A DNA stretch of 64,000 nucleotides, from the NCBI GenBank assembly GCA_964016885.1, contig OZ024740.1, positions 354,330,001-354,394,000 of the forward strand, in the 5' to 3' direction. The notes beneath the pieces are model-generated. The model saw only the letters and a program-made list of their open reading frames with translations, was not told where the DNA came from and made no database searches. This document shows positions 47,849 to 60,755 of this stretch, piece after piece. The position numbers and the translations under genes were made by a program. Within the stretch, counting starts at the first letter, position 1. Every line of letters begins with the position of its first letter. This DNA comes from Eledone cirrhosa (Eukaryota).

Positions 47849-48071
47849 CTTTAATGTTATAACAAGAAGTATCACAGAAAGCATCATGATAAAAAAAGCA
47901 TCAATAAACCAAGCCATCCAGTAAACATTGTTCTTTAAACCCATAATCTTCATCACCTCTTTTAATCGTTTTTCCTTCTCATAAACTACATTCTTTACTA
48001 TCATTGCAACAGAAAAGATCCATGCAAGCACCATGAATAGTGGGAGGCTTCTTGAAATGGTTTTCGTAAAT
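47849..48071 (-). CDS. ABCA1: ABCA1-like exon (TMD1), GC donor
   Basis: acag|...AAG|gcaagt; 223 nt, FTKTISRSLPLFMVLAWIFSVAMIVKNVVYEKEKRLKEVMKIMGL...LLVITLK. Confidence 0.92.
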
Positions 48072-50828
48072 CTGTGAACAATAAAGAACAATATCTTTTA
48101 CTGATTAAAACATCTTTTGATTAGGTACATGATATTTTATTAGAGAATAGTTGGTTTGCAACAATATAGGTGATGTATTACATAATGATTAGTCAATGTA
48201 TATGAAAAGATACCTAGACCTATCTACATTTAAACAAATCAGTTTTGTGGATATAAAGAATATATGGAATAGAATAAAAATCTGAGAACCAGATCAGACT
48301 TGAATCAGCATTGCTTTGTTGACACCATTGTATAACTGCCTCTTTTCTATAATTATAATACTTTAAAATCATATAATGAGCTATCAGAAAATATCTACAA
48401 ACAGGTTGTTTAATTTAAATGTTTATAGTATCTTTACTGGTGAACAGACGAACAGATCATTGTGAAAAAGTACAGTAGTAGACTAAAAACTTTAGTTTTT
48501 AATGTGACACATTATAATGTCATTCTAATGCAGCTTTATGTGGTACAGGATGTTAAGAGTTAAACACAAACTAATATAGGAGTGGTCTCACTATTTAATC
48601 TATGACTGCCACTTGAGTTAAAACCAAAACCAAAAATATAACACATCTGCACCAGCTAAGATAAATACAGTCTCAAAGAGTCAAAAGTATAAATATAAAG
48701 ACATTTATATGATGTAGATTTCATCGAGAAAACATTTATGCTAGAGCATGAACAAGAGGATATGGGTTAAAGTCCAACCATGTTTTGGCACTTTTATGTT
48801 ATTTCATACACTCCTTATACATACACGAACACTTAGTTTTCATGTAAACATTTATTCAACAAATATGGTACATGTATGTTTGTTCTGTAAGAATTCAGTG
48901 ATAAAAACCCAAATTTCATGAGAACATTACAATTGAATGATCACACAACTTTGACTTTTCTGGAGATCTTGCCAGATTTGGTGTGACTACAGAATGTACC
49001 GTTACTTTTATAAGTGAGAGATGGGGAGAGTAGGAGAGACAGAGTCAATGACAGTGGGAGTTTGGTTCCATTGTGTTCGGACCTGGTGTATATGTATATA
49101 ATTATTTACTACACCACATTAACTGTATATTTGAAAGTGTTTTTATTACTCCTTTTTAAGTATTCTCACTATCTTATGCTGATTCTTTATTGTTTCAGAT
49201 TATCAGATGACTTTGGCATGAAATAATTATTTCCTTCATATACACCAACAGCAGTAGGAACAGATTCAAATACAAAAGACAATATTTTTTAATTATATCT
49301 TACATGTGATTCACTTTTTGAAACCATTTATGAAGACTATATAGTGTTTATCAAACTATAAAACAATAATGGTTCATGAGAGTAAAATATTTCCTAACTA
49401 TTTAAAAGAAAAGTTAAATTCAAGTACATTGAATAGCTATGCATTTGAGGCTTGATAAGTAGCAATTTTAAATTCAATTTGTGATTATAATATAGGTTGT
49501 CTTTATGATACATTAACATTCAAAATATATTCCCTATCTCCTCACCTATCATAGATTTGTTCAAAACCTTAACATTTTGGTGCTTAGAGAGAAGATATGA
49601 CTTTGATTTTATTTCATCTTCAGACATTATTGTGTTATACAATGCTTAAGTCGGCTTACTGGAGTAACTTTTAATTGTTGAGAAAAGCACATTACTCTTC
49701 TTGAAATACTTGTCCCAGTTGTAATTAAAAATGCACAAATTCATGATTGAATAATTATTGCTAACAAGAGCATTCATCTGTGAAATATTTATTCTGTAAA
49801 TTCGTGCAAATGCACAAATTTATGGGATTCTTTAATATAATATTGGACAGAAAAATAATGAATGTAATTAATTATAAGGTATTAAAATGTTGAGGCAGAC
49901 TAAATATTTTACAGTAGTTTTGTTCCTTTGCATTCCAGTCCATATGTCTTATTCATCCCTCTGAGATGAATAACATAAATGCTAGAATCAATTGATGATC
50001 ATTTTCCCTACAGAAACTTAAGTAACAAATCAATTCATTCTAATATAAGGTGGTAAGTTAGCAGAAACAACAAATTGCTATGTTAAATTCGTTCGTGTAT
50101 TCTATCATTTCAAGTCTCACTGCTGAGATCATTTTAGGCTTTCTTCACTTTAGATAAAAAATTTAAAAAAGTATTAATATACTGGAATTGATTCAATTAG
50201 CTTTACATCTCTACCTCACTGTAAAAATTTGATCTTGCAATTAGTTGGAAGAAATTATTAATAATAGAATTAATAATCTCAAGTTTTCCATATTTGGCTG
50301 ATGAATGTTAAACATGTTTGAATAAGAAATATATAACCGACCACAACAACAAAAAGATTAACTAAAATAAAATAAAAACGATTATTTAGAAATATTACAC
50401 TAAAATAACAGCCAAGAGATTCATTTTTGCTCTCTTTCCAAAAGAACAAAAACAAAATGTAAGTTTCTTTTTTCTTTTAAAAGTGGGAGGAGTTACATTT
50501 TTCTTTATTGTTCAGAGGTAAATACAATAGGAATTAAATAAAAAAGAAAAATCGATGCTACAAAAGTGATATTTGAATGTCTTAATTGATTATATTTAAG
50601 AAGCAATTTATAAGGACATTTCAATTAATCCAAACTATAATTGAAGTAAAACTATAGCAATTTTGCTAACACTTGTGTTTAACAATAAAAAATTATGCAA
50701 AGAATATAAATTATATGTCCCCCACCTCATAAGAGAACTAATTAAATTAAAACAGAATCAGACTCAAACTACACACATAGATGTGTGTTTATATATGTAT
50801 GCATGCACACACATTATATATATATATA

Positions 50829-53800
50829 TTTTGGTCGTATTGAACAGAACAAATTTTGTATTTTTGTTAATCGCTTGTTAAATGCAAGGACCCCATTCAA
50901 TCATTACCTTCTATCTAGCGTATTTTCAAACCTTAATTCCTAACGTATTTTCAAACCTCAATCCCTAATTCTAGCGTATCTTCAAAACAAAAAAACAAAA
51001 TCCTTTCCTTCTTCCTTCTTCGAAGGCATGGGGCGGTCAAACGCCTAACACACACAACCATCATGCGCCCCCCCCTCTCTCTCTCTATATATATATATGA
51101 TAGGAATTCACTTCGCCAAATTTCATTGCTTGCTGTCTCTACCCCACGATATTCATGTAACGTAATGTACAGATTTCATTTCTCTTCCTCCACAAATCCT
51201 AATTCTAGCGTATTTTAATTCTAATTCTAGCGTATTTTCAAAACAATCCATATTTCGTATCAAGTCCAAATAGCCAATCTATCGCTAAAACAAACTACAT
51301 TTTTTGTTTTTATTAATTGTTAAATACGAAAGTTTTTGGTCGTATTGAACAGAACAAATTTTGTATTTTTGTTAATCGCTTGTTAAATGCAAGGACCCCA
51401 TTCAATCATTACCTTCTATCTAGCTACCCAACACCCCTCCCTCCCACCCCCACCATTGCTATTACGTGGACCAATCATAAAACAGAGCCCCCACGCATCA
51501 CCAGTATTATTACGCGGACCAATCAGAAGCCAGAGGCCTATACTATCGCTTGCCTGGTTGCCTTTCGATATATGATGGATGGATGGACTGCGGAATCCTG
51601 GAGAGTGGAGGAGAGAGAGAGAAAAATCTGGACGCTCAAGCGACAATGCCAAAGATAAAGACAAATTCACCTCTTGGACGAGAATGCGAGCACTCATTGT
51701 TTCGACCGCGGACGGCTAACATAACCCCATCGCCCCCCGCCCCCCACCGCCCCCAACCCCCAAACGCAATCCAAAACTTCAGAGTTGGTACCATAAATGT
51801 AGGCACCCTAAAGGGTCGCGCTAACGAGGTTGTAGAAATGCTTGAACGTAAGGAGGTCGATGTTTGTTGTATTCAAGAGACCAGGTGGAGGGGTGGGTCT
51901 GCTAGGTTCATTGAGGGTAAAAAACGATGTTATAAGCTTTTCTGGGTGGGAAACGACGATGGGCTGGGTGGAGTAGGAATCATGGTAGCAGAAAAGTGGG
52001 CAGATAAGATAATAGACGTAAATAGAGTGAACGACAGAATAATTAAAATACGACTTGTCCTCAATAGAACTACGGTGACAGTAATATCTGCGTACGCACC
52101 CCAATCCGGACTGCCCGGCACTATAAAAGACAGATTCTATGAGACACTGATGCTAACTACCTCCCAAATATCCGACAGTGACTATATAATTATCGCAGGC
52201 GACCTAAATGGTCACGTTGGACAACATTGTGACGGCTACGACGAAATCCATGGAGGCTATGGGTTTGGTACTAGAAATGAGGAAGGCTCCAGAATCCTGG
52301 AATTCTGTGATGCAAATAACCTAACTATCTGTAACACTAACTTCAAAAAACGTGACAATCACCTGATCACCTATAGATCCGGGGAACACACAAGCCAGGT
52401 AGATTATATCCTTACCAGAAGACGTGACAGAGTGTCTGTTGTAAACACTAAATCCCTCCCCCATGAAGAATGCACCTCCCAACATAGACTGATAATTAGC
52501 GACCTCATAGTCAGGACGAGACGTACTCGACAGCAGAAGAGGACTATCCTCAGGAGAAAAATATGGAAGCTAAAGGACCCCACAGCCAGGAATAAATTTC
52601 AAAGCATATTACTTGATGCTTTCGACAGTAAGGAAGAACATTTAGAGTCGGACAATATAGAGGGAGAGTGGGAATTTCTGAAAGCAAACCTGCTGTTGGC
52701 GACAGACGAAGTCTGTGGCTGGAGCAGGCCTGTAGGCAGGAGGAGAGTAACATGGTGGTGGAACAGTAAGGTGGAGGGGTCAATTAAGGCCAAAAAGCAG
52801 GCTTGGAAAGTATGGCGGGTTGGGGGAAGTAGAGAAGACTATCAAGTGGCCAGGAGGGAAGCTAGGAGACAAGTGTACTTAGCAAGAAGGGAAGCTGAGG
52901 AAAGAAAGTTCAAGCATGTTCTACAACGCGATGACCAAAAACGTGAGGTGTTCAGGATTGCTAGGCAATGCGTCAAGGAAAACCGTGATATTGTCGGGGA
53001 GAAGTGTGTACTAAACGACGATGGCACACTTGCCATCACCGACGCTGATAAGAAGGTAGCTTGGAAGTGTCACTATGAAAGGCTACTAAATGAGGAGAAT
53101 AAATGGGAGAAAGACAGTCTCCCCCATATCGACCCAATAGAGGGACCAGCAGTGTTAGTCGAGGGGAGTATAATAAGTAAGGCAATCAAGGATATGAAGA
53201 CGGGTAAGGCGGCTGGGCCTTCGGAAATAGTTGCTGAGATGCTGAAGGCATCTGGCACGGTGGGACACACCATGGTCACCCGCATAGTTAACCAAGTCGT
53301 ACAGAATGGGGTTGTTCCGAAGGACTGGCATAGCAGCATCATCGTTAACTGTTATAAGGGTAAAGGAGACGCCCTAGATAGGAGTAACTATAGAGGCATT
53401 AAATTAATCGACCAGGTCATGAAGGTCACGGAAAAAGTAATAGCGCAACTAATCAGAGAGAGAATTGACCTAGATGAAATGCAGTTCGGGTTTGTGTCAG
53501 GCAAAAGTACCACAGACGCTCTTTTCATAGTACGACAACTACAGGAGAAGTACCTAGCTAAAGGTAAACCCCTCTACTTAGCTTTTGTCGACTTGGAGAA
53601 AGCCTTCGACAGAGTCCCCCGCTCCATTATCTGGTGGGCTCTTAGAAAACTAGGCGTTGACGAATGGCTTGTGAGGGCTATACAAGCCATGTATAAAGAA
53701 ACAGTCAGCAAGGTTAGAATTAACAACGAATATAGTGAAGAGTTTAGCGTAAAAGTTGGCGTCCATCAGGGCTCTGTTCTCAGCCCACTACTATTTATTA

Positions 53801-55215
53801 TTGCCCTTCAGGCTATAACAGAGGAGTTCAAGACAGGCTGCCCATGGGAACTCCTATACGCAGACGACCTGACACTCATAGCGGAATCAATGGCCGAGCT
53901 AGAGAAGAAATTCCAAACATGGAAGCACGGCCTAGAGTCAAAAGGACTTAAAATTAACCTGGCTAAGACCAAAGTACTAGTTTGTAGGAAAGAAAACAAG
54001 GCGGCGGTCCCTTCTGGGAAATGGTCGTGCTCGGTGTGTAGGAAAGGCGTAGGTAGAAACTCCATTTTATGTCCTAAATGCAAAGTATGGGTGCATAAAA
54101 GATGTAGTGGGATCACAGGTAAGCTAACTAAGAACATAGATTTTACATGTGGCCGGTGCTCTGGTGCAATAAGTAGCAGCAAGTGCCCACAAAATACTAG
54201 CTCTTTCAATTGCGCAGAGGGTTCTATAGAAATAGTGGACAGCTTCCGTTACCTGGGCGATAAAATCAGCAGTGGGGGAGGGTGCTCTGAAAGTACTGTA
54301 GCTAGAGTCAGAACTGGTTGGAAAAAGTTCAGAGAGCTTATACCACTATTAGCTGCTAAAGGGTTCTCACTAAAAATGAAAGGCAGGTTGTACGATGCCT
54401 GCATACGAACAGCAATGCTGCATGGCAGTGAGACCTGGGCATTGTGTGCAGAGGATATACGCAGACTAGAGAGGAACGAAGCTTGCATGCTCCGCTGGAT
54501 GTGTAACAGTAATATACGTGAACGGCAAAGCATAAACGAACTAAGGAAAAAATTAGAGATAAGAGGGATCAGATGTTGTTTACTCGAGAGAAGGCTACGT
54601 TGGTATGGACACGTGATGCGCATGAAAGTCGATAGCTGTATAACAAAGTGCAGGGCAATAAAGATAGACGGTAGTCACGGAATAGGCAGACCTAGAAAAA
54701 CCTGGGACGAGCTGATAAACTCCGACATCACACACTTACACCTCTCCAAGACAATGTCACTGGACCGAGACCTTTGGCGGTACTCAGTAACAGAGAAGAC
54801 CCGCCTTACCTAAATATATAGTAAAACCTACTCCAGCCAGTAGGCATCTCTAACAAAATACACCCCGTCCCACCAGCACCACCACCCCCACCCCATCCAC
54901 ACCACCCCGTTCTATGTAAAGTTATGTTGGTGCCGCGCCATCGAGGCCGAAACAAATGAGATCGTGTAGGTGTCACGACAAAAAAACACACAGTCCACGC
55001 TGTAATGTGGCCGTGTAGGCAACACGGTAAAAACCTCCCAGACCCACACTGTAAATGTGGTTGGTGTTAGGAAGGGCATCCAACTGTAGAAAACCTGCCA
55101 GACAGTCCTATGCGAGCAAGACAATCACTCTTGCCTCAAGTGGGACTACCCCCGTCCAAACCCATGCAAGCGTGGAACACGGACGTTAAACGTTGATGAT
55201 GATGATGATGATGAT
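50829..55215 (+). mobile_element. Apparently full-length RTE LINE, antisense to the ABCA gene (5' boundary uncertain)
   Basis: Single ORF, ~400-nt 3' UTR ending ggacgttaaacgtt(GAT)n; (TA)n tracts at 50816-50829 and from ~55215; repeated 5' region. Confidence 0.85.
51646..54813 (+). CDS. RTE-clade LINE polyprotein: AP endonuclease + reverse transcriptase with inserted PHD finger
   Basis: Uninterrupted ORF (51550..54813; in-frame ATGs at 51583 and 51646). APE motifs TINVGTL, IQETRW, AYAPQ, GDLNGHVG, QVDYIL, SQHR; RT motifs NYRGIKL, QFGF, FVDLEKAFD, GVHQGSVLSP, YADD (53857), FRYLG; RTE C-terminus RLRWYGHV..GRPRKTW. Confidence 0.96.
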   Translation: MPKIKTNSPLGRECEHSLFRPRTANITPSPPAPHRPQPPNAIQNFRVGTINVGTLKGRANEVVEMLERKEVDVCCIQETRWRGGSARFIEGKKRCYKLFWVGNDDGLGGVGIMVAEKWADKIIDVNRVNDRIIKIRLVLNRTTVTVISAYAPQSGLPGTIKDRFYETLMLTTSQISDSDYIIIAGDLNGHVGQHCDGYDEIHGGYGFGTRNEEGSRILEFCDANNLTICNTNFKKRDNHLITYRSGEHTSQVDYILTRRRDRVSVVNTKSLPHEECTSQHRLIISDLIVRTRRTRQQKRTILRRKIWKLKDPTARNKFQSILLDAFDSKEEHLESDNIEGEWEFLKANLLLATDEVCGWSRPVGRRRVTWWWNSKVEGSIKAKKQAWKVWRVGGSREDYQVARREARRQVYLARREAEERKFKHVLQRDDQKREVFRIARQCVKENRDIVGEKCVLNDDGTLAITDADKKVAWKCHYERLLNEENKWEKDSLPHIDPIEGPAVLVEGSIISKAIKDMKTGKAAGPSEIVAEMLKASGTVGHTMVTRIVNQVVQNGVVPKDWHSSIIVNCYKGKGDALDRSNYRGIKLIDQVMKVTEKVIAQLIRERIDLDEMQFGFVSGKSTTDALFIVRQLQEKYLAKGKPLYLAFVDLEKAFDRVPRSIIWWALRKLGVDEWLVRAIQAMYKETVSKVRINNEYSEEFSVKVGVHQGSVLSPLLFIIALQAITEEFKTGCPWELLYADDLTLIAESMAELEKKFQTWKHGLESKGLKINLAKTKVLVCRKENKAAVPSGKWSCSVCRKGVGRNSILCPKCKVWVHKRCSGITGKLTKNIDFTCGRCSGAISSSKCPQNTSSFNCAEGSIEIVDSFRYLGDKISSGGGCSESTVARVRTGWKKFRELIPLLAAKGFSLKMKGRLYDACIRTAMLHGSETWALCAEDIRRLERNEACMLRWMCNSNIRERQSINELRKKLEIRGIRCCLLERRLRWYGHVMRMKVDSCITKCRAIKIDGSHGIGRPRKTWDELINSDITHLHLSKTMSLDRDLWRYSVTEKTRLT

Positions 55216-56290: not shown

Positions 56291-56341
<51 letters not shown>

Positions 56342-56468
56342 TACTAGGGAGAGGATTAGGGGTGTATAACACTCCACTTATCCAGCAGGCAGTATAAGGT
56401 TAGCTCAATGTCTGAGGACAGAGCCGTGATATAATAAATAACAAAGAACGCCTATAGCATATGCATAT

Positions 56469-56526
56469 CTTTACTTGCTAACATTGTTTCATCCGCACTA
56501 TAAGTGGGACTCATCAGAGCATAAAG
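56469..56526 (-). ncRNA. Minimal type I hammerhead ribozyme (mirror copy, sense to the ABCA pre-mRNA)
   Basis: Reverse complement of 58174-58231; stem I extends to atcttta/taaagat in this copy. Confidence 0.7.
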
Positions 56527-58173
56527 ATTAATTACATACCATACAAGCAATAACAAATCCAAGACATTGAAGAATGAAAAATAATAATAGACGATAAAGG
56601 ATATTAAGGAAGTAAAAGTAAAAATAAAGATAAGAATAAAAATAAAAATAAAAATAAAAATAAGATAATAAAATAAACAATGAAAAATAAGCAATGAAAA
56701 ATAAACAATGAAAAATAAGGGGTGCTATCAGTCACAGTTGGGCGGGGTGCTGTCAACATATAGTTACATACAAGCATACACATGGATAAGAGAATAGACA
56801 AGAGTAGATAAGATAGATGGGATTAGGTAAGAGTAGGTAAAAAATAGGTGAAAAACAGACTTATAATATATATAAGAAAATATAAAGAAATACATAACAA
56901 ACTTACATATAAAATATAAAATATACAGATAATAGTGATACAGGGTAAGGAATGAGATAAAATAATATAAAATTAAAATTAAAATTATATAAAATAGAAC
57001 ATAATATAATATAATCATAAAATAAGATAAAATAAGGTAAACTAAAATCAAATAACATAGACTAAATTAAAATATAATATAAGATATAATTAAATTTATA
57101 ATTAAATGTAATTAAATGTAATTAAATAAATAAAAAAAAATAAATAAATAAATAAATAAATAAATAAAAATTAAATAAATAAATAAAATTAAAATTAAAA
57201 TTTAAATTTAAATAAATAAATAAATAAATGGAGTTAAATAAGTAAATAAATAAAATTAGATAACATGAAATGAAATAATATAAAATAAAATGAAATAAAG
57301 TAAATTGAGATAAGATATATATTTTTTTAGAATATATCTCTTGAATATATCAGGGGCCCACGAAGGCACTAAGTGTCACAGTTATGTGTATCACTTGACC
57401 ATTTTTTAAAAATATATTTCTTGAAAACATCAGGGGCCCACGAAGGCACTAAGTGTCACAGTCACCAGTATCACTTGACCATTGCAAGGCAATGGAGGCG
57501 TCCCAGGTTGGGCAGTCTCAAAAGTTCACTCGAAAGTCGCGGGTGTGCATTCACACAGTTGAGCGGTGGGGTAATCACAAACCGGTTCACACCCGGGCAG
57601 GAGTCCAATGGTCAGAGAGAGGTGCATCGAAGGAAGGTAGAAGAATTCACGTGCATTAGCAAGCTAGGTGCAGGCGGGTTAGCCAAAGCAAGCAGACACA
57701 GTTGTAGCGCATACAAAAGATATATAAAAAGACAGAAGATATATAAAAAATAGCTTCAAGAGCCATTAAGTCACCGCATTGGGACATCACAAGATTGTAC
57801 ACATCAATATGTTCAGCACGTATATGCACATATACACACCACATGCATATGCAGAGACGGTATACATATATATATATATATTTTTTTATATACAGACACA
57901 TACAACCACCAACACCCATACACATATAAATGTATACACGGACACACACGCACACACACACAGCGTAGGACACCCGGGTCAAAGCTAATATTAAACACCG
58001 AAATACCACATTAGACCAGACCCACCACCACAGGTAATACATTCAAAATAAATACATACGATGAGATGTAGTAAAATAAAGTTGAAATCCTACGGAGATA
58101 TTCATGTCCGCACGTGCCATTGCCCGATTCAAGTGTACACAGACTGTTATTGCTTGTATGGTATGTAATTAAC

Positions 58174-58231
58174 CTTTATGCTCTGATGAGTCCCACTTAT
58201 AGTGCGGATGAAACAATGTTAGCAAGTAAAG
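58174..58231 (+). ncRNA. Minimal type I hammerhead ribozyme
   Basis: cttta-tgct CTGATGA gtcc-cact-tat-agtg-c-ggat GAAA c-aat-g T T agca-ag-taaag: both core boxes, stem II, 2-bp stem III, GUU triplet and bulged stem I. Confidence 0.7.
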
Positions 58232-58263
58232 ATATGCATATGCTATAGGCGTTCTTTGTTATT

Positions 58264-58307
<44 letters not shown>

Positions 58308-59184
58308 TGGCTGCCAACTCGTTTTCGAGTACGGCCACTACTTTATATCCATGTAGGAGAACCCCTACCGATGCGCTGAACGAGTGTGACTTAGTCCAGC
58401 CAGCGACTTGAAAACTCTGGTACAAACACTACACTTGTGACAATTATTGACACATAGTGCTGGGCCCATGGTACCATGTGACGACAAGTGCAGAGAGATC
58501 TCCAGATATAAAGCAATGCCTGTGCTGTGAAGCCTTTACAGTGAGCAAAGGCACTGCACAAAGCCAGTCCCACTCTCTTAACCAAGATGATATTTACCAA
58601 AAAGAAGAACAAGGCAACATCATTGGATACCATCAGGGTTGCAGGTGTTATATCAGAGTTTTCCTTCTCCTAGAATTATATATATACATACATATATATA
58701 TACATACATACAAACATACAGGGTACTGGCATGGCCATGTGGTTAAGAAGTTTGCTTCACAACCACATGGTTCTAGTGTCTTCTTTTGTTACTGCAAGCT
58801 GTGAATGAGGAGTTAGTGAAGAGGAAGTAGCTTAAGTGAGAACTGAATCTGTATTGCTGACTCAGCTGGCCATGAACTCACAATTGAATTCATGTGTACA
58901 TGTGGTGTGCATTTATAATGTGTCTTTGTGTTTGCAATCATGAGTATGTGTAAGCATGTGCATGTCTGCATATGTCAGAAATAGCAGTACAAGAGAGAAA
59001 GAAAGCAAAAGAAAATAGAGGGAAAATGTGAGAGAGAATATAAAAATACAAATCAGGAAAAAACCAAAATACTTTAAATATATTGAGATTTGAATATCAT
59101 TAAAATTATGTGCATAAAAGGATAAAACATTCCTACATTATGAGATAGGAATCATAAGTGAGAGATTATGTAATGAATACTAAC

Positions 59185-59361
59185 TTGTCATCTATATAAC
59201 ATGGATAGGGAAATTGTTGTGTATAAACTCCAGAGATAGCATCTTGTCCAGTGAGTTGGCTAATAATAGCATGATCTATCATATCTTGTAAATATATAAA
59301 ACCATGTGTGAAATATTTGAGGTCGGGAAGTGGACGAGCTCGAGCTCCAGGTGTCCACCAC
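59185..59361 (-). CDS. ABCA1: ABCA1-like exon (ECD1 end)
   Basis: gtag|...|gttagt; 177 nt, WWTPGARARPLPDLKYFTHGFIYLQDMIDHAII...GVYTQQFPYPCYIDDK. Confidence 0.95.
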
Positions 59362-60755
59362 CTACAAAGTTCAAAATTATTAATTAGTTATAATGATAAA
59401 GAAATAAAAAAATGAAATCATAAAAAAATGTATGAAATATTCTTTTTTTTTTCTTTTTTAAAAATTTTGATTATAAAATAATTTATGGAAATATAAATTT
59501 ATTAAATATTCTTTTTTTTCTTCTTATTTTAAAGATTTTAATTATAAAATAATTTGTGGAAATATAGATAATATAGATGTACATAGAAATAAAAATATGC
59601 TGAAATTCTGCTTTGTAAACAACAACATCCTGTAATGAGTTAGCATAGGTGAATTGGCAGAGTTGTTATAACGTTGAATAGAATGCTTTATGGTGTTCGT
59701 TCCAGCTTTCTGCCCCCTGAGTTCAAATCCCGTCAAAGTCAACTTTGCTTTTCCTCCTTTCAAGGTCAATAAAAATGTACCAGTCTAGTACTGGGGCCGA
59801 TTCTTCCTCTATATCTCTTTTTCATTCCCTCTTTCTCTGGAAGAAATCTGCTGCATTCCGGCCTGGAGAGGTATGGACTCCACCAGGCTTAAAATGCCCA
59901 AGAAATGCCAATACAGTGTCCCTACGACTCTATCAGGAGTTATGGAACCAAATGTACATACATAATGATTTAGCAGAAAATATCTAAAAAAAATTTAAAT
60001 TCCAGTGTTTAGAGCATCTTTAGTAGTAGATAGATTGTAGTGAAAATGTACAGTAAACCAAACGCTTTAATGTGATGCAATCAGTTTGCTGATTTGTACT
60101 TATCAAGAATGTTTTTCTAATGCAGTTTCAAGTGGTACAGGACATTAAGAGTTAAACAAAATGGCGTCTAACATAGGGTTCATAGGCATCCTGTTACTTA
60201 CAGAGATAATTTGTGTTGCCTTTAGGAATATTTCTTTCCTTTTTTTAGTTTTGTAACTTCATTAGGTCAATAGGGAACATTGAACACCCAGTTTTCATCT
60301 AGTAATGCAAAAGAGAATTTCACTGGAGTCATTTCCCATCACATTTTCCAGCCTCCAAGACAGACTTAGACACAGTATTGTAAGTGTATGAAACACTCAA
60401 CAATTTGAAATGCTACCACTGCTTACAAATATGAACTACCAACAACAGTGACACCTATTTAGAATAAGATTAATCAATTATTGGAGGGTGATAAGGTAGA
60501 AGAATCAGGGAACGCCAGAGGTGAATAATGGGCTTCAAATCTCAGCTACACTTTCGACATAACAATATTCTATTTCAACTAGAATACTTTTCTTGCCCAA
60601 CCCAGTAAATTTACCCCCTCTCTTCTTATCCCCACAAAGTATTTCACCTACCTTCATACCACACTGAACAATTTGCCCAAAACTTTTTTAAATAGCTTTT
60701 TTTTCTTCATTCACCACAAAATTAATAAAATGAAACATCAAAACTGAAAACATAC

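Follow-up and report, generated by a model that had tools for sequence, protein, structure and literature searches.

The unit described here lies in the window, the whole 64,000-nucleotide stretch of Eledone cirrhosa DNA that was analyzed. It is very probably a 1.81-kb 3′ fragment (minus strand, 58149–56339) of a longer multi-copy family, to which 127 nt from its own hammerhead-bearing end are joined as an inverted copy. Penelope-like machinery likely placed both in one insertion into (TA)n, and self-cleavage of the unit is predicted not to occur. On the sequence, the structure is likely ordinary in kind, a truncated Penelope-type copy with a flipped duplicate end. Five features of endonuclease-bearing (EN+) Penelope-like elements (PLEs) are present: a type I hammerhead near the 3′ end, 5′ truncation, an inverted 5′-truncated copy at the 5′ end, a one-sided tail, and a (TA)n target. 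Putative membership in the EN+ PLEs rests on this architecture and on the hammerhead, and the original prediction of Penelope-type hammerheads in an inverted, pseudo-LTR-like layout is borne out by the motif, the truncation, the inverted copy, and the tail.

Overall Organization of the Unit

The components of the unit are listed in Table 1. The two arms, which are 1589 bases apart, are reverse complements at 126 of 127 positions, as had been predicted, and the sole mismatch is upstream of the ribozyme. The prediction had taken this near-identity as a sign of a young structure; the single mismatch is confirmed, but the age of the unit is only loosely bounded because 1 difference in 127 has a 95% interval of 0.02–4.3% divergence. 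Similarly, the predicted coordinates of the arms hold, but the border between the interior and the right arm is not sharp and consists instead of a 5-nt overlap, and a microhomology of at least 5 nt at this place has a chance probability of 0.005–0.006.

The unit was expected to sit between (TA)n tracts and does so, the TA runs being of 44 and 38 bases; at this one locus both flanks, where a target-site duplication was looked for, consist of these runs. Its ends are asymmetric, with a tail at one side only. This tail, which the prediction had tentatively taken for a pLTR tail extension, also follows the arm in contigs of three sequencing runs, X1, X4, and X5 (loose ends of 21, 14, and 77 nt, respectively). 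The distance from the hammerhead cut site to the 3′ end of the main copy is 141 nt. No direct repeat (a partial tandem forming a direct pLTR) was found in the window copy, and no further copies of the element were found within the 64-kb window.

Table 1. Components of the hammerhead-bearing unit, with positions and strands in the window
Feature	Position	Strand	Remarks
Left (TA)n target tract	56294–56338		44-base TA run; its limit toward the tail is uncertain by a few bases
One-sided 90-nt tail, the 3′ end of the main copy	56339–56428	−	Missing from the right end
Left arm, the hammerhead-bearing segment of the main copy	56429–56555	−	Core start 56517; predicted cut after 56480
T-rich (minus strand) low-complexity block	56556–57320	−	59% A on the plus strand; possibly an intron or UTR, with one GT-AAG donor-like site at −56906
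Tandem pair of 80-bp units, 89% identical	57321–57480		Tandem form also in X5 and X6 joints
GC-richer noncoding block, 47% GC	57481–57855		Multi-copy; CCAAT, E-box, GC-box, and TATA-like motifs on the plus strand at 57605–57747
5′-most part of the main copy, with a microsatellite patch at 57856–57967	57856–58144	−	
5-nt microhomology between the truncated main copy and the inverted copy	58145–58149		Interior matches other contigs to 58149, arm from 58145
Right arm, the 3′ end copied in inverted, 5′-truncated form and lacking the tail	58145–58271	+	Core start 58183; predicted cut after 58220
Right (TA)n target tract	58267–58305		38-base TA run; overlaps the final bases of the arm

Genomic Setting

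The gene map of the window was made by tblastn with 6 of 120 ABCA proteins as queries. Approximately 20 exon-like matches that follow one another in order along the window outline an ABCA1-like gene on the minus strand (2766–60900), and the unit is located in the intron between its exons 59172–59363 and 47849–48085. Antisense in the same intron is an uninterrupted frame of 1110 codons (51481–54813, plus strand) with an APE endonuclease, an RT, and a PHD-like finger. This is apparently, from its sequence, an intact LINE, which we take to be RTE-like; as an APE-RT element it was rejected as a PLE partner of the unit. A 115-aa frame at 310–657 on the minus strand presumably resembles the N terminus of a Tc1/mariner transposase.

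Hammerhead Motifs and Their Predicted Behavior

The original prediction placed a hammerhead in each arm, and a type I descriptor recovers it there with the full core and stems I, II, and III. The descriptor has two sites in the window, both in the arms, as compared with 0.03 sites per window in 100 Markov shuffles of 64 kb; being one duplicated sequence, the two sites count as one independent hit. The CUGAUGA cores (+58183 and −56517) are on opposite strands. Each hammerhead comprises a stem II of 4 + 3 = 7 bp with one bulge, followed by GAAA, a minimal stem III (A-U, C-G) that closes a self-complementary 3-nt loop, a GUU triplet with the cut predicted after +58220 or −56480, and a stem I of 4 bp, a 2-base bulge, and 5 bp. 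Scanning with covariance models or motifs had been proposed as a check: the descriptor finds its two sites, and the Rfam models give no match at gathering, none of their 15 matches at E ≤ 10 being a hammerhead. Covariation of stems I and II was looked for among the variant rows listed for X1, and none of the 40 falls in the arm.

In the MFE folds the arms pair with each other at 127 of 127 positions in the minus-strand RNA, which is the direction of the host gene, and at 126 of 127 in the plus-strand RNA, with a duplex energy of −213 kcal/mol. For a lone monomer, the hammerhead fold has a probability of ∼1e-5 (−6.7 kcal/mol versus −13.0 for the MFE). The hammerheads of metazoan PLEs are described as weak in cleavage and acting as dimers (PMC4209133, PMC6765202). 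Within one transcript of the present locus a dimeric ribozyme is impossible because the two ribozymes are on opposite strands. Whichever strand is read through, the RNA would carry a single sense ribozyme, and the antisense arm, being transcribed ahead of this ribozyme, would pair with it; self-cleavage is thus predicted to be blocked. The outcome would be a 127-bp double-stranded stem in the ABCA1-like intron and no cut, so that the window copy is predicted from these folds to lack ribozyme activity and to give rise to a duplex within the intron. Such a duplex could be a substrate for A-to-I editing.

Other Copies in Sequencing Runs

Among the runs listed, 17 have some portion of the element, and in 5 of these the share reaches at least 0.4. 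Contigs of 4 of the 21 listed runs were aligned to 57400–58281, a range outside which the middle of the T-rich block lies. Runs X1 and X4 are from organism A and one study, and X5 (organism B) and X6 (organism C) are from another; X1 may be the same sample as the source of the window. In all four runs, and so in three organisms, the interior passes 58149 and runs into other sequence that is common to them and unlike the arm (loose ends of 12–28 nt), and 5 of the 30 records listed end at 58149 with letters left over. The sequence readable beyond this point is 28 nt at most; by eye, and over this very short stretch, one of its three minus-strand frames is open for the 28 nt, with a stop within the microhomology.

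In three of the four runs (X1, X4, and X5), the T-rich block adjoins the arm on one side and the tail adjoins it on the other: loose ends preceding 58145 agree with the T-rich flank found at the left arm, and those following 58271 agree with the tail. In X5, a single unbranched contig of 228 nt comprises the T-rich flank, the whole arm with no differences, and 77 nt of the tail. In X1, 222 contigs were aligned, of which 119 are <99% alike; the listing gives 40 of 41 variant sites and 12 of 16 indels, and all 12 of these indels are of lengths that are not multiples of three. Summed contig depth, which is not a copy number and was given no weight, is higher for the arm than for the interior in X1 and X4, and X6 has no arm cover. 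Two X1 joints, 57421–58261 and 58280–57819, both within AT-rich DNA, were disregarded.

Because the interior continues past 58149 and the arm is internal in other copies, the arms are not fixed ends of the family, and the continuation, the multiplicity of copies, and the indels indicate that the interior is a repeated noncoding part of a longer family. Its order appears to be continuation, GC-richer block, 80-bp units, T-rich block, hammerhead, and tail, the continuity of the T-rich block in other copies following from its two ends having been seen there. By the same comparison of sequences, the right arm reads as an inverted duplicate joined through the 5-base overlap.

The original prediction had instead envisaged fixed, MITE-like inverted ends, that is, a nonautonomous family in which every copy has the inverted structure and amplifies as such. 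The arms are indeed neatly inverted, and short contigs among the 341 aligned records and 17 loose-end rows outside the listing could carry the junction of the window in several copies, but this reading is quite unlikely given that other sequence follows the junction in all four runs aligned, that the arm has nonterminal neighbors on both sides in three of the four, and that in X5 it forms one unbranched contig in the left-arm form. The one-sided tail, which makes the ends asymmetric, also argues against it. A weak hint of an inverted junction, though elsewhere, comes from X4, in which a 13-nt loose end at 57747 resembles the arm (9 bases exact, by eye). This loose end is near a drop in depth (57747–57760) that amounts to ∼8-fold relative to X1 at 57760; it may mark another truncation or inversion point but is no evidence by itself.

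The junction of the window at 58145–58149 is itself bridged by none of the 30 contig records listed, which would agree with a post-insertion fold-back rearrangement, or an assembly artifact, that reverse-copied 127 bases of an existing element; microhomology marks repair events too. We nevertheless regard such an origin as highly improbable because the inverted copy stops exactly at the start of the tail and adjoins the TA tract, because one base differs between the arms, and because the layout agrees with the pattern described for other insertions (PMC8557442).

Wider searches were made for relatives of the unit. The arm had no match as a probe against metagenome contigs, and a looser hammerhead pattern had none in viral contigs. 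Nine loci in metagenome contigs matched this pattern and were rejected, all being prokaryotic or phage-like by their ORFs and none having a blastn match to the element. Five phage-like contigs (L001, L002, L003, L008, and L009) have in common a CUGAUGA...GAAAC motif beside the start of one gene, which we take to be capsid-protease-like; the motif may be a chance occurrence or an unrelated hammerhead-like one. No RT/GIY-YIG partner was found or linked in the metagenome and viral contigs or in the protein searches that were run.

Content of the Interior

The interior was predicted to contain no recognizable ORF, in agreement with the result that neither of the two interior ORFs tested has a Pfam family. 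No Pfam family was found for a 128-aa minus-strand ORF. A 126-aa plus-strand ORF was rejected as a decayed gene, as its only 2 matches in 1.84 billion representatives are tandem-repeat proteins that sum weak 30% matches. ORF, Pfam, and protein searches did not find RT or GIY-YIG sequence in the window copy, an absence that is expected because the copy is 5′-truncated.

On the plus strand, CCAAT, E-box, and GC-box motifs are followed by two TATA-like motifs; all four kinds of motif thus stand in canonical order, which 0.0004 of shuffles match, for motifs picked post hoc after the sequence had been viewed. They point opposite to the inferred sense and away from the hammerhead end, and possibly represent an antisense promoter. 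A bacterial promoter scan, the model of which is not apt here, gave 1 site versus 3.0 expected. These motifs also speak for an alternative origin, in which the unit arose by internal deletion from a longer element whose inverted ends were long. That element would have had a plus-strand gene with its promoter at 57605–57747 and its ATG at 58104, and the deletion would have removed everything between two 5-nt microhomologies; microhomology-mediated internal deletions in Penelope copies with inverted pLTRs have been published (PMC3846280). We consider this origin improbable. No protein was found that shares words with the frame of the ATG at 58104, a weak test given its 21 real residues, the composition asymmetry and the direction of the hammerhead fit a minus-strand sense, and the motifs fit equally well an antisense or bidirectional promoter of the kind proposed for pLTRs (PMC3846280).

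On the minus strand at 56412–56474, a donor-like GTAAAG just past the cut site and a pyrimidine run ending in CAG in the tail were noticed by eye; the pair could bound an intron of ∼63 nt.

Comparison with Known Elements

The literature searched yielded no paper on this element family. EN+ PLE insertions often include an inverted 5′-truncated copy, a tail of 30–40 bp at one end, and a bias for (TA)n (PMC8557442). With the Penelope/Poseidon, Neptune, Nematis, and Hydra groups (PMC8557442 Fig. 2, PMC3846280) the unit shares a 5′-truncated copy with an adjacent inverted 5′-truncated copy, a one-sided tail, a type I hammerhead near the 3′ end, the (TA)n target, and a microhomology junction. Its tail is 90 nt, in contrast to the 30–40 nt in print (PMC8557442), and at least 1.7 kb of noncoding sequence is present upstream of its hammerhead, whereas pLTRs of 193–218 bp are reported (PMC3846280). 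Unlike full EN+ PLEs, the window copy has neither an ORF nor a direct pLTR.

The hammerheads share with those of metazoan PLEs, as described in PMC4209133, the type I topology, a 7-bp stem II, a 4-bp proximal stem I, a stem III of 1–2 bp with a small self-complementary loop, and the occurrence of opposite-strand pairs. They differ in having G-U, where G-C is usual, as the first pair at the base of stem II, and have no extra base after the core; the members of the pair are 1.67 kb apart rather than 100–700 bp (PMC4209133). Animal non-LTR retrozymes are likewise noncoding and PLE-related and have a type I hammerhead, but they are head-to-tail tandems of 51–972-bp units (bioRxiv 10.64898/2026.07.22.740005), whereas the present unit is inverted, nontandem, and at least 1.84 kb in length, and identity with them was rejected because their tandem units are <1 kb.

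Among octopus PLEs, Naiad_Obim/Ovul/Omin and Hydra-1_Obim (PMC8557442 supplement) have the same preference for insertion into (TA)n. Naiads are described as lacking a canonical hammerhead (PMC8557442), and identity with them was rejected because the unit has the full type I motif. The hammerhead of Hydra-1_Obim has different stems, and a 14-base core probe had no match in either direction in the supplement of PMC8557442. MITEs have in common with the unit a noncoding interior between inverted repeats, but here the repeats are not family ends, the ends are asymmetric, and the hammerhead points to a retroelement.

Proposed Mechanism of Insertion

When purified, a PLE protein cleaves AT-rich DNA on both strands and extends both; it initiates reverse transcription at two internal sites, between which the tail lies, and has no need for ribozyme cleavage (PMC11167929); this two-start-site model comes from in vitro work on one lizard element only (PMC11167929). 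Inverted pLTRs are shorter, and their junctions can be microhomology-mediated (PMC3846280). By analogy, an RT/GIY-YIG protein would nick both strands of the TA tract, and each nick would prime cDNA from a different one of two internal starts separated by 90 nt; both ends are TA-like and so could anneal to the target. The cDNAs would run for 1811 and 127 nt and would then join via the 5-nt microhomology. Because the 127 nt occur in both cDNAs, they would have to come from two templates or from two passes.

Implications for the Family

The structure as such is already known: dual hammerheads on opposite strands have been tied to truncated PLEs (PMC4209133), and inverted pLTRs and 3′ extensions are described as peculiarities of individual PLE copies (PMC8969392). 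Unusual in the unit are the long 90-nt tail and the noncoding stretch of at least 1.7 kb. The genome appears octopus-like, and for Octopus vulgaris 336 insertions from 31 Penelope-like families with recent activity have been reported (PMC13282606). The window copy offers a clean PLE insertion junction with little divergence. Its two ends, separated by 90 nt, and its 5-nt join are positions at which the two-start-site model can be tested.

It is possible, if rather doubtful, that the family is wholly without an ORF beyond 58149 as well. It would then be a long (2 kb or more), dispersed, nontandem hammerhead parasite of PLEs, 95–99% conserved across three organisms, with reverse transcription starts 90 nt apart, its own antisense-facing promoter, and inverted insertions that seed 127-bp duplexes in host introns. 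If the family indeed has no ORF, PLE parasites would extend well past the size range of retrozymes.
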